From an uncultured virus (IMG/VR IMGVR_UViG_3300020460_001007) (lineage: Duplodnaviria > Heunggongvirae > Uroviricota > Caudoviricetes): DNA of 20,000 nucleotides. The stretch is taken from the IMG/VR virus record IMGVR_UViG_3300020460_001007. One strand, written 5' to 3'. Below, piece after piece: positions 8,176 to 10,874 of the stretch (position 1 is its first letter; every line of letters begins with the position of its first letter). The notes under the pieces are model-generated. The model did not search any database and was not told the origin of the DNA. It was given only the letters and a program-made list of their open reading frames with translations. The translations under genes and the position numbers were made by a program.

Positions 8176-9513
8176 ATGGCAAAAACATATTCGGAGAAGG
8201 TGGTAAATTTGGTTGATACTAAGGATAGACATCAACTCGAATTTAGACAAGCAGTAAATGAAGTGCTTGAAACATTAACACCAATCGTGGATAAGGATTC
8301 CACATACCAAGACATTGGTTTGCTTGAAAGATTGGTAGAACCGGAGAGAGTGATTACTTTCCGAGTTCCTTGGGTGGACGATAACAATAAGGTTCATGTG
8401 AATCGTGGTTATCGTGTACAATTCAATAGTGCCATTGGACCGTATAAAGGTGGATTAAGATTTCATCCATCGGTAAATCTCAGTATCATCAAGTTCCTTG
8501 GGTTTGAACAAACATTCAAGAACTCACTCACGGGACTTCCTATGGGTGGTGGTAAAGGTGGTAGTGACTTTGACCCAAAAGGCAAAAGTGATGCAGAGGT
8601 GATGAGGTTCTGTCAGTCATTTATGGTTGAGTTGAGTAAACACATCGGACAATTTACCGATGTACCTGCCGGTGATATTGGTGTTGGTGCAAGGGAAGTT
8701 GGATTCTTATACGGTCATTACAAACGTTTACAAAATGAAGTAGTCGGAGTTTTGACGGGTAAAGGTCTGGACTTCGGTGGTAGTTTGGTAAGAACCGAAG
8801 CAACTGGATATGGTTGTTGTTACTTTATGAAAGAAATGCTCGGAGTTCTCAATGATAGTTTTGATGGAAAGAAAGTCACAATTTCAGGTTCAGGAAACGT
8901 AGCAATGTATGCAATGGAAAAAACAATTGAACTTGGTGGTACGGTGGTTGCAATGAGTGATTCAAGTGGATATGTGTATTCGTCTGCCGGTCTTAAACTT
9001 GATTTAATGAAAGACATTAAAGAAACTAAAAGATTGAGAATAGAAGAATATGTAAAACAAGACAAAGACGCAGTATTCAGCAACACAGGAAGTATATGGG
9101 ATGTTTCGTGTGAAGTGGCACTTCCATGTGCGACTCAAAACGAATTGGAAAAGAAACACGCAGAACTTCTTGTTCGTGGTGGTTTGATTGCAATTGCAGA
9201 AGGAGCAAACATGCCATGCACACCAGAAGCAGTTGAAGTGTTTCATAAAAACAAGATTCCATTTGGTCCGGGTAAGGCATCAAATGCAGGAGGTGTTGCC
9301 GTAAGTGGATTGGAAATGTCACAAAATAGTATTCGTGATAGTTGGTCGTTTGATAAAGTTGATAAAAAACTTCAAGGTATCATGAAGAATATTCACGACA
9401 CTGCGTATGAAGCTTCCGAGAAATACAATGATAAAGGTAATTATGTTATGGGTGCTAACATCGTAGGATTTCTAAAAGTAGCAAATGCAATGATTTCACA
9501 AGGAATTGTATAA
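8176..9513 (+). CDS. gdhA: Glutamate dehydrogenase, NADP-type signature
   Basis: [46 protein letters not shown] (8887-8904), [17 protein letters not shown]. Start 8176 preferred over 8170 because ATATTTAT-N4-ATG fits it. Confidence 0.97.
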
Positions 9514-9517
9514 GGAA

Positions 9518-9530
9518 TATATTTATATAC
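9518..9530 (+). promoter_or_regulatory. TATATTTATATAC element abutting the ATG of the second gdh
   Basis: The 16-mer TATATTTATATACATG (9518-9533) is identical to the reverse complement of 11935-11950. Confidence 0.6.
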
Positions 9531-10874
9531 ATGAGTAAATATGTTGATGATGTAATTAAAAAAGTTGAGGAAAAAAACCACTCCGAACCGGTATTCATTC
9601 AAGCAGTAAACGAAGTGTATTCAAGTTTACATTCAGTAATGGATAAACATTCCGATTTTAGAAAAGCAAATCTTCTTGAACGATTGGCAGAACCAGAGAA
9701 GCAAATTATATTCAGCATACCTTGGATTGACGAAATCGGAAACGTTCATGTTAATCGTGGATATAGAGTTCAGTTTAATAGTGTATTGGGACCATACAAA
9801 GGTGGGTTGCGATTCCACCCAAGTGTTAACTTGGGAACAATGAAGTTTCTTGGATTTGAACAAACTTTTAAGAATAGTTTAACAGGTTTGCAAATTGGTG
9901 GAGCAAAGGGGGGAAGTGATTTTGATCCAAACGGAAAAACCGATTTGGAAATTATGAGGTTCTGTCAGTCGTTTATGACAAAACTCCATGATCACCTCGG
10001 TCATAAGACAGATGTACCCGCAGGTGACATAGGAGTCGGATTCAAAGAGATAGGGTATCTGTTCGGTCAGTATAAGGCACTACATAGCAAATATGAACCA
10101 GGACTCATTACTGGTAAAGCACCTGCATGGGGTGGTATTCAAGGTCGCAAGGAAGCAACTGGTTTCGGAACAATTTATTTTGCGGAAGAAATGCTAAAGA
10201 ACCATCACACGGATATCAAAGGAAAAATCATTACTGTTAGTGGGTTCGGTCAAGTATCTTTTGGAGTTGTAAAGAAAGCAGTTGAAATGGGTGCAAAGGT
10301 AGTTACAATATCAGGACCAGACGGATATGTACACATGAAGAATGGTATCAAAAAGAACATGATTCCTTACATGGAAGTTCTTCGTGAATCCAACAAAGAC
10401 ATCGTTAAACCTTTCGCAGAAAAATTCGGAGTGGACTATATCAAGGGCAGAAAACCTTGGGAAGTGCAATGCGATATAGCAATTCCAAGTGCCATCCAAA
10501 ACGAAATTACAGAAAAAGATGCGGAAATGCTCATCGATAATGATTGTAAATTTGTTGTAGAAGCAGCTAATATGCCATGTACAGAGGGTGCTATAAAACT
10601 CTTTAACGACAAATTAGTGGTAGTTGCTCCATCCAAAGCAGTAAACGCAGGTGGAGTGGCAGTATCGGCACTAGAGATGCGTCAGAACGCAGGGTGGGAT
10701 AAGTGGAACTTTGCTCAAGTGGATAATAAACTAAGAACTATAATGAAACAGATACATATTTCATGTCTGAAGCACGCCAGGAAATACGGAACAGAGGGTG
10801 ATTACACGTTGGGAGCAAATGTCGGTGGTTTCCTGCGAGTGGCAAGAGCAGCCATTGCTCATGGAATTATTTAA
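9531..10874 (+). CDS. gdh: Glutamate dehydrogenase, NAD-type signature (Clostridium symbiosum GDH / Bacteroides GdhB-like)
   Basis: YKGG, FKN, GGAKGG and PAGD catalytic motifs intact; coenzyme region GFGQVS (10242-10259) and SGPDGY (from 10311); VVAPSKAVNAGGV; N-terminus MSKYVDDVI. Confidence 0.95.
   Translation: MSKYVDDVIKKVEEKNHSEPVFIQAVNEVYSSLHSVMDKHSDFRKANLLERLAEPEKQIIFSIPWIDEIGNVHVNRGYRVQFNSVLGPYKGGLRFHPSVNLGTMKFLGFEQTFKNSLTGLQIGGAKGGSDFDPNGKTDLEIMRFCQSFMTKLHDHLGHKTDVPAGDIGVGFKEIGYLFGQYKALHSKYEPGLITGKAPAWGGIQGRKEATGFGTIYFAEEMLKNHHTDIKGKIITVSGFGQVSFGVVKKAVEMGAKVVTISGPDGYVHMKNGIKKNMIPYMEVLRESNKDIVKPFAEKFGVDYIKGRKPWEVQCDIAIPSAIQNEITEKDAEMLIDNDCKFVVEAANMPCTEGAIKLFNDKLVVVAPSKAVNAGGVAVSALEMRQNAGWDKWNFAQVDNKLRTIMKQIHISCLKHARKYGTEGDYTLGANVGGFLRVARAAIAHGII

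Follow-up and report, generated by a model that had tools for sequence, protein, structure and literature searches.

The window analysed here is the whole 20,000-nucleotide (nt) stretch taken from an uncultured virus of the Caudoviricetes (IMG/VR record IMGVR_UViG_3300020460_001007). On its + strand lie two adjacent genes for glutamate dehydrogenase (GDH), referred to here as GDH1 and GDH2, whose products keep the full catalytic set of class-I enzymes, carry marks of opposite coenzymes and have two separate origins. The two genes and the spacer between them are as follows:

8176-9513, + strand: GDH1, class-I glutamate dehydrogenase of 445 amino acids (aa) with NADP-type marks (GSGNVA, SDSSG and a basic K..KR.R patch)
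9514-9530, + strand: spacer between GDH1 and GDH2, 17 nt, containing ATATTTAT at 9519-9526
9531-10874, + strand: GDH2, a 447-aa class-I glutamate dehydrogenase whose NAD-type marks are GFGQVS, SGPDGY and an Asp where Clostridium symbiosum has N290

Catalytic residues and coenzyme marks

An earlier note on this DNA had described two adjacent full-length GDHs, and the open reading frames (ORFs), their Pfam domains and the identity between their products bear this out. The longest GDH1 frame runs from 8170 to 9513, and the frames from 8170 and 9531 are each free of stops over 447 residues. The true start of GDH1 is 8176, as the note wrote, since the orthologues are 445 aa long, share the aligned ATG as their first and lack an in-frame ATG at 8170. 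PF02812 and PF00208 are present at full length in GDH1 (E 3.2e-53 and 2.3e-86) and in GDH2 (E 8e-48 and 1.2e-75). The two proteins are 49% identical (220/446, E 6e-158), and the part best conserved between them is the N-terminal domain, which Pfam names a dimerisation domain. The motif strings quoted in the note were all found, namely YKGG, FKN, GG(G/A)KGG and PAGD in both copies, GSGNVA, SDSSG and KETKRLR in GDH1, and GFGQVS, SGPDGY, MSKYVD and APSKAVNAGGV in GDH2.

Among solved structures, the best relative of GDH1 is 5ijz ('NADP-specific glutamate dehydrogenase', E 1.3e-186), followed by the Escherichia coli GdhA chains 4fcc and 3sbo. GDH2 matches 5ijz (E 2.2e-153) about equally with the C. 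symbiosum chains 1bgv, 1k89 and 1aup (E 5.5e-149, with GDH2 residues 2-446 aligned to 1bgv), its score being slightly higher against the NADP enzyme 5ijz (514.5 bits) than against the C. symbiosum chain (500 bits). Judging from these matches to hexameric solved enzymes (E 1e-149 to 1e-186), each of the two enzymes would form a homohexamer.

Individual residues were compared in an alignment of 37 phage GDH1 sequences, 25 phage GDH2 sequences, 173 close cellular relatives, 81 named cellular-locus sequences and E. coli GdhA. In C. symbiosum numbering, we take Lys125 and Asp165 to be catalytic and Lys89, Lys113 and Ser380 to bind glutamate. Equivalents of all five are intact in 25/25 phage GDH2. 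In GDH1, K89 and K113 are intact in 37/37, while the strings around K125, D165 and S380 are unchanged in 36/37 and the residues themselves are kept in 37/37. YKGG and FKNS occur in every phage GDH1 (37/37) and GDH2 (25/25), PAGD occurs in 36/37 and 25/25 with its Asp present in all, and the Lys of GG(G/A)KGG and the Ser of NAGGV.VS are likewise found in all phage copies of both genes. Both proteins therefore have what defines a class-I GDH, i.e., two ELFV domains over ~450 aa with the full catalytic and glutamate-binding set. Because the strings around these residues are conserved, GDH1 and GDH2 are both expected to be active glutamate dehydrogenases, neither leucine/phenylalanine-type enzymes nor dead copies.

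The two copies differ at the sites associated with coenzyme choice. At clostridial positions 238, 262 and 263, GDH1 has Ser three times and GDH2 has Phe, Pro and Asp, respectively; Gly261 (P7) of the clostridial enzyme is present in GDH2. In the segment aligned to E. coli KASRDGRV, GDH1 reads KETKRLRI and keeps all three basic positions (K286/R289/R292), whereas GDH2 reads RESN(Q/K)DIV, with the basic residues gone at the R289 and R292 positions. Among the six commonest GDH1 strings of the 37 orthologues, one variant of the basic triad was seen (3 sequences), with Asn at the middle position. The clostridial Asn290 position is Leu in GDH1 and Asp in GDH2; Asp is also found there in most close cellular GFG-type relatives of GDH2, and an acidic residue at this place should still disfavour the 2'-phosphate. 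The marks are uniform among orthologues, with GSGNVA and SDSSG(Y/F) in 37/37 phage GDH1 and GFGQV(A/S/T) and SGPDGY in 25/25 phage GDH2. The Gln that replaces Asn240 (GFGQ) is fixed in 25/25 phage GDH2, while 174/174 cellular relatives in the table have Asn.

Experimental work gives some of these sites a meaning. In the clostridial NAD enzyme, the replacements F238S, P262S and D263K (Griffin and Engel) are credited with a 100- to 170-fold gain in NADPH efficiency, and Asn290 is said to hydrogen-bond the 2'-OH of the adenine ribose, both in passages of PMC3157743. A 2025 paper (PMC12364357) names K286, R289 and R292 as the positively charged residues that are conserved in the E. coli enzyme. 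GDH1 shows the motifs of an NADP-specific enzyme (the GSGNVA turn, Ser at the F238 and P262 positions and the basic triad). GDH2 shows Phe238, Gly261, Pro262 and Asp263 of the NAD type and departs from it at Asn290 and Asn240.

The earlier note had read GSGNVA/SDSSG as the NADP-specific pattern, and the same strings stand in chains 5ijz, 3sbo and 4fcc. GDH1 thus shares GSGNVA, SDSSG and the basic K286/R289/R292 positions with the NADP GDHs of Corynebacterium glutamicum (5ijz) and E. coli (GdhA; 3sbo, 4fcc; EC 1.4.1.4), but is phage-borne, its nearest cellular relatives being enzymes of Cellulosilyticum/Niameybacter type with 62-69% identity. The likeness seen between GDH2 and the NAD+-specific C. 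symbiosum GDH (1bgv, 1hrd, 1aup; EC 1.4.1.2) also holds, since 1bgv/1aup read GFGNVA, SGPDGY, SKYVD and VVAPSKAVNAGGV at the aligned places. What the two share comprises Phe238, Gly261, Pro262, Asp263, the SKYVD N-terminus, VVAPSKAVNAGGV and the catalytic and glutamate-binding residues; the C. symbiosum enzyme is cellular and has Asn240 and Asn290 where the phage protein has Gln and Asp. The coenzyme marks had been read correctly, with agreement at three separate sites in each copy. A 3-residue indel near residue 280 was considered as a further marker of the NAD and NADP classes and dropped, as E. coli GdhA has the longer form.

Ancestry of the two copies

Phylogenetic trees were built from the phage sequences, the closest cellular hits of each copy, 50%-identity library representatives (33 of 150 were full-length and used, the rest being left out as partial), named cellular loci (32 proteins from 31 of 80 kept) and E. 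coli GdhA. These 109 rows became 95 after 14 remote long-branch representatives were dropped. In a quick LG+G4 tree of the 95 rows, GDH1 falls inside a 22-row GSGNVA-type clade and GDH2 inside a 45-row GFG/SGPDG-type clade, both with a Shimodaira-Hasegawa-like approximate likelihood ratio test (SH-aLRT) value of 99. A careful tree (LG+C20+F+G4) was made from 58 rows, with long and redundant rows removed. Here GDH1 lies in a 15-row GSG clade with Cellulosilyticum-, Niameybacter- and Breznakia-type enzymes (support 100/99), and GDH2 in a 32-row GFG/PD clade (100/93), within a 17-row, mainly Bacillota-type subclade (96/86). GDH2 evolved faster than GDH1, since its stem is longer (0.65 vs 0.40 changes per column).

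A joint clade of the phage copies, an outcome that the earlier note had named ahead of any tree, was put to the approximately unbiased (AU) test. With the 58 rows it was rejected under the mixture model (log-likelihood (lnL) difference 66.1, p 0.0046) and under a careful LG+G4 analysis (lnL difference 97.7, p 0.0025). Median identity between GDH1 and GDH2 is 50.7%, vs 62.4% between the cellular GSG and GFG types. GDH1 has a median of 65.6% to the cellular GSG type and 60.0% to the cellular GFG type; GDH2 has 57.9% to the GFG type and 51.4% to the GSG type. From the trees, two of three AU tests and this pattern of identities, we conclude that GDH1 and GDH2 did not arise by duplication within the phage and have two origins. 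The separate derivation proposed in the earlier note, as opposed to sister paralogs from one recent duplication, thus stands.

The phage may have taken up the two genes separately, or both at once from a cell with neighbouring copies. Among cellular loci, a second GDH within 3 kb was found in 2 of 80, and a side-by-side layout was seen in none of the sampled relatives of either phage gene. One Actinomycetota metagenome-assembled genome (MAG; L080:1570-4326) has two directly tandem GDH genes with a 97-nt gap. One copy of this tandem reads GSGNVA/SDSSGY, and the other has the unusual GYGNVG/GDEYGC at its coenzyme sites and takes a basal position in the GFG/PD clade.

The phage carrier and expression of the pair

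The contig is viral. The earlier note had called the genome phage-like, which agrees with rIIA- and rIIB-like genes in the window and with T4 hallmark genes (capsid, portal, terminase) on syntenic relatives. It had also proposed a survey of viral databases for the tandem pair, and this pair was found in 6 IMG/VR contigs: searches with either protein returned the same six, five with both genes complete and one cut by the contig end, the GDH proteins being 88-95% identical in amino-acid sequence. T4-type terminase was present in 4/5 relatives' contigs searched, as was T4 gp23 capsid (4/5, E about 1e-84), the fifth contig being a 76-kb fragment; the HK97 capsid family was found in 0/5, the capsid being of gp23 type instead.

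One relative of 170 kb (G002) was annotated, giving 140 ORFs of at least 90 aa. Its structural genes include gp23, gp20 portal and terminase (gp19 tube, sheath and gp25 too) and a prohead protease; it further encodes gp32, a RecA/UvsX-like protein, a family-B DNA polymerase, a clamp-loader-like ATPase, ribonucleotide reductase, PhoH and dUTPase. Gene order in G002 is that of the window, namely DnaK, exonuclease, small ORF, GDH1, GDH2, DnaJ, IF-1, ClpP, rIIB-like and rIIA-like. The pair is therefore flanked by phage genes within a phage genome and does not sit at a prophage-host border, both in the window and by synteny in the relatives. The neighbours annotated in the window are:

2964-4540, - strand: three sugar-nucleotide-type genes in a row, cytidylyltransferase-like (PHROG: heptose kinase/adenylyltransferase), HAD/acid phosphatase and eukaryotic-type phosphomannomutase
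4813-6747, - strand: DnaK, upstream neighbour, syntenic in all relatives examined
6854-7792, - strand: PD-(D/E)XK exonuclease, upstream neighbour, syntenic in all relatives examined
14362-15708, - strand: rIIB-like gene (PHROG phrog_609, E 6.2e-70)
16143-18413, - strand: rIIA-like gene (PHROG phrog_612, E 4.5e-112)

The GDH1/GDH2 junction is bridged by contigs from three other studies, one of which (run X10; 4,782 nt) covers 7700-10821 and is about 91% identical across both genes. The best-matching metagenomes are labelled marine and Tara names occur among the orthologues; the habitat call was made without small-share runs, X10 and those labelled freshwater among them. Besides the window's own, there are 35 orthologue protein clusters of GDH1 (78-95% identity) and 24 of GDH2 (76-95%). 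These clusters include contigs of 495-577 kb, which may be concatemers or very large genomes; the IMG/VR pieces measure 61-170 kb, three of them classed as 'provirus'.

In INPHARED, a megablast search with the whole window gave no match, and tblastn with GDH2 gave 28 records, all below 60% identity and most of them short and unannotated, with no cultured phage carrying the pair among them. PHROGs holds no family for GDH1 or GDH2. Other IMG/VR contigs with a single GDH were rejected as phage examples: L013, L014 and L015 have integrases or recombinases beside cellular genes, and L006 has its single GDH at the very end of the contig. At least 3/5 of these other single-GDH contigs show integrases next to cellular genes, unlike the pair in the window. 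On a 12-kb IMG/VR contig (L016:170-5444), a GDH1-like ORF with 61% identity over residues 9-224 only has as neighbours a 5'-3' exonuclease and a large protein that combines Hint and LAGLIDADG homing-endonuclease domains; this may be a second GDH-bearing phage lineage, or a fragment.

Both genes are under purifying selection. By pairwise Nei-Gojobori estimates, the ratio of nonsynonymous to synonymous change (dN/dS) is 0.041-0.092 for GDH1 (21 pairs) and 0.024-0.098 for GDH2 (15 pairs), with dS of about 0.35-1.45, the largest dS values being saturated. GDH1 and GDH2 are intact in every copy seen. The alleles of the two genes are related differently among the five IMG/VR lineages L001-L005 and the window: GDH1 of L002 is nearest to L003 and L004 (dN 0.016-0.029), whereas GDH2 of L002 is nearest to L005 (dN 0.033) and groups with the window. 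These differing relationships point to recombination within or beside the pair.

Expression signals were sought in the region ahead of the pair and in its spacer:

8080-8175, + strand: conserved non-coding region upstream of GDH1, with a TATAAT-type box ATTATAATAA at 8141-8150 and ATATTTAT at 8164-8171

These 96 nt have 87% mean column identity across 7 lineages, far above synonymous-site conservation, and both ATTATAATAA and ATATTTAT are invariant in 7/7. The region is probably the promoter and leader of a GDH1-GDH2 unit; a simple sigma-70 scan returned no + strand site in it. The spacer measures 17-19 nt across lineages, there is no space for a separate GDH2 promoter outside the GDH1 coding sequence, and no terminator-like sites were found on the + strand between or after the two genes. 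Given the conserved upstream region, the short spacer and the lack of a terminator, GDH1 and GDH2 are probably co-transcribed from one conserved promoter, which is more likely than separate control.

The earlier note had assigned each gene an element of its own. The arrangement ATATTTAT-N4-ATG does precede both GDH1 (8164-8178) and GDH2 (9519-9533), but it also precedes two other ORFs, and the copy in the spacer is exact in one of 6 aligned lineages, that of the window. Counting 4 exact and 4 one-mismatch copies, the window has 8 against 1.38 expected, a number reached in 0 of 200 shuffles. Sites of the motif in the window include:

2046-2060, 4720-4734, 8164-8178, 9519-9533, 11935-11949, 14346-14360 and 16009-16023: ATATTTAT-N4-ATG

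In G002, boxes like ATATTTAT stand before about 15 of the 140 ORFs, the terminase included, and a Shine-Dalgarno-like core stands before just 27 of the 140. The arrangement is a general gene-start motif of the phage. It shows that the GDH genes follow the conventions of the phage, not that they are separately controlled. The copies before other ORFs exclude ATATTTAT as a GDH-specific motif; it was also rejected as a T4 late promoter, since it does not match the T4 box TATAAATA and sits 4 nt from the ATG. The motif may reflect a translation-start context peculiar to the host, or else serve as promoter of mRNAs that are nearly leaderless. Between a divergent small minus-strand ORF and GDH1, TATAATAAGTCA occurs twice (8090-8101 and 8107-8118, 17 nt start to start), the AAGTCAAGG of its second copy being invariant in 7 lineages; this repeat may act as an operator, or else as promoter of the divergent gene.

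Further genes around the pair form a proteostasis and translation cluster of DnaK, DnaJ, IF-1 and a ClpP-type protease (in the window at 4813-6747 on the - strand, 12120-13175 on the + strand and 13176-13484 and 13490-14197 on the - strand; in a relative at L102:15228-15722). This ClpP-type protease is not the T4 S77 prohead protease, which sits elsewhere on the relative, and the relative also encodes Hsp20. Relatives of the DnaK are found in huge uncultured phages and in Prevotella (Lak) phages. G002 also has a glycosyltransferase block, UDP-glucose dehydrogenase, an epimerase and mannose-6-phosphate isomerase. Genes for PrkA kinase, a DUF444 protein and a SpoVR-like protein stand in a row on G002 (L098:10453-15315, - strand). 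Their E. coli counterparts (YeaG, YeaH and YcgB) are tied to adaptation to nitrogen starvation, and the trio would be in keeping with a nitrogen theme next to the GDH pair.

Role of the pair in the infected cell

The reading that we favour, with a rough probability of 0.62, is that an uncultured marine T4-like phage carries this locus as an auxiliary metabolic module, consisting of two separately derived, intact class-I GDHs, one for NADP(H) and one for NAD(H). The module probably lets the phage steer the carbon-nitrogen junction of its host. Both enzymes would be made together in the infected cell. GDH1 would use NADP(H) for the reductive amination of 2-oxoglutarate, assimilating ammonium when 2-oxoglutarate and ammonium are plentiful, and GDH2 would use NAD(H) for the oxidative deamination of glutamate to 2-oxoglutarate, ammonium and NADH when amino acids are plentiful. 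This would give extra, host-independent capacity at the glutamate/2-oxoglutarate/ammonium node on both coenzyme pools, with the net flow set by mass action. With both enzymes running at once, the pools would be linked as by a transhydrogenase, passing reducing power from NADPH to NADH. The data show the genes and their residues, the phage context, the conservation, the purifying selection and the separate ancestry; coenzyme preference, co-transcription, flux direction and benefit to the phage are all points that we infer.

By analogy, the phage module most likely copies an isozyme design of Bacteroides and fungi. Bacteroides fragilis and B. thetaiotaomicron each have one assimilatory and one catabolic class-I GDH per genome, GdhA (NAD(P)H) and GdhB (NADH); in B. 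fragilis, ammonia is assimilated by the NAD(P)H enzyme, and the NADH enzyme runs the reaction the other way and increases with organic nitrogen (PMC4539542). The Bacteroides pair is described as regulated apart, by ammonia and peptides (PMC4539542), whereas the phage genes lie 17 nt apart and are probably on one transcript. In three of five cellular genomes sampled, all Bacteroidales, an enzyme of GSGNVA/SDS type occurs alongside one of GFGNVA/SGPDG type; a Rikenellaceae MAG has the two genes 2.5 kb apart. The careful tree does not place the phage copies close to the Bacteroidales enzymes.

Several points weigh against this account. The 58-row set, on which both rejections of a joint phage clade were obtained, was chosen after the first tree had been seen, and the quick LG+G4 analysis of 95 rows did not reject such a clade (lnL difference 31.7, p 0.309); the stems of both phage clades are also long. 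GDH2 departs twice from the C. symbiosum pattern, with Gln for Asn240 and Asp for Asn290. The coenzyme 'fingerprint' rules of GDHs are described as having many exceptions, in passages of both PMC12364357 and PMC3157743, so either enzyme could be dual-specific. Finally, two such enzymes running together would partly undo each other, and 'assimilate and catabolise' alone leaves the benefit of a single transcript unexplained.

An alternative is that the cycle itself has been selected. As a two-enzyme transhydrogenase from NADPH to NADH, the pair would feed respiration and ATP supply in an infected heterotroph while the net amount of glutamate stayed the same. We hold this to be an unlikely but serious rival. 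In its favour, the marks of GDH1 and GDH2 point to opposite coenzymes, co-transcription is probable and both genes have been retained by purifying selection across a long divergence. Yeast offers a parallel in Gdh1 (NADP) and Gdh2 (NAD), the latter being a large enzyme of another GDH class. There, opposite-coenzyme GDHs act on one glutamate/2-oxoglutarate pool, as the phage marks would suggest for the phage, and the cycle is reported to turn one NADPH irreversibly into one NADH (PMC9684072). The yeast cycle is backed by genetics and engineering, whereas for the phage it is no more than a possibility. An NADPH drain would oppose the needs of a phage with a ribonucleotide reductase, such as the relative G002 encodes, and cells with both isozymes regulate them apart, as described for Bacteroides (PMC4539542).

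Somewhat less likely again, in our judgement, is that the pair is kept as one device, in which a co-transcribed glutamate/2-oxoglutarate cycle encoded by the phage would convert host NADPH to respirable NADH, set the level of 2-oxoglutarate and so override nitrogen-starvation signalling. 2-oxoglutarate is the metabolite by which bacteria sense their nitrogen status. The PrkA, DUF444 and SpoVR-like trio of G002, with its nitrogen-starvation counterparts, belongs with this reading. A bolder form of this idea would have mixed hexamers with both coenzyme sites.

The marks might instead mislead, and the two enzymes might share a coenzyme or be dual-specific, the second copy adding dosage or different kinetics or regulation. 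The known exceptions to the fingerprint rules and a newly described dual-specific bacterial GDH, reported in part of PMC12364357, speak for this, as does the phage-specific Gln in the GFGQV of GDH2. We hold it to be quite improbable, given that three separate sites agree in each copy and are fixed across 37 and 25 orthologues, and that in the trees each copy falls among cellular enzymes that share its motif class.

A mixed hexamer of GDH1 and GDH2 could be either a catalytic/regulatory complex like GdhA/GdhB of Thermus thermophilus or a particle with both coenzyme sites. One Thermus GDH subunit is regulatory. Thermus supplies the precedent for a mixed hexamer from adjacent GDH genes, and its heterocomplex chains (3aoe, 3aog) are among the distant solved relatives of GDH1; the phage genes are likewise adjacent and probably co-transcribed, and the Pfam-named dimerisation domain is their best conserved part. 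The Thermus GDHs, however, belong to a different subgroup (E about 1e-55 to GDH1), and the subunit of impaired catalysis expected in a heterohexamer of this kind was found in neither phage copy, both of which keep every catalytic and substrate residue, so that neither looks regulatory. Alleles have been reshuffled between lineages without co-adaptation, as the groupings of L002 GDH1 and GDH2 show, and the copies derive from different cellular clades, each homohexamer-forming. With no catalytic residue lost in either copy and the alleles reshuffled, a catalytic/regulatory heterohexamer is unlikely. Mixed hexamers as a whole appear very unlikely, with one of two active subunits as a minor possibility.

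Cells hold NADPH/NADP+ high and NADH/NAD+ low, and uncoupled exchange therefore goes downhill from NADPH, which counts against any use of the pair to supply this coenzyme. A cycle from NADH to NADPH, which the earlier note had suggested for dNTP synthesis, can accordingly be set aside as highly improbable: it draws on the same two-coenzyme marks, and G002 encodes ribonucleotide reductase as an indirect consumer of NADPH, but the documented Gdh1/Gdh2 cycle runs the opposite way, NADPH to NADH, and is described as irreversible (PMC9684072).

As members of their family, the two enzymes of the favoured module are ordinary; what is new is that a T4-like phage has such a pair of isozymes as a conserved module. 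A hadal-trench virome lists glutamine synthetase and 'glutamate dehydrogenase (GDH2)' as viral auxiliary metabolic genes (AMGs) in the text of PMC9356048, and a rumen viral MAG with glutamine synthetase and asparagine synthase appears in that of PMC13196213. In PMC12304974, gdhA is mentioned among cellular genes only. The AMGs of such virome surveys are single genes in lists, whereas the pair described here is a conserved two-isozyme module with a T4-like carrier. Literature searches, which covered main texts, gave no account of a conserved NADP/NAD GDH pair in a phage, of its phylogeny or of its T4-like carrier; supplementary AMG tables of virome papers may list further GDH genes.

GDH sits where carbon and nitrogen metabolism meet, and among its substrates are the main nitrogen donor of the cell and its main signal of nitrogen status. 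Host-like genes are known from marine phages, where they rewire the flow of carbon, phosphorus and nitrogen in infected cells. That a widespread T4-like lineage has kept two GDHs of different ancestry and apparently different coenzyme use under strong selection suggests that control of this node pays when marine heterotrophs are infected. Behaviour of the pair as a coupled cycle would further show whether phages manipulate the redox balance between the NADP and NAD pools.

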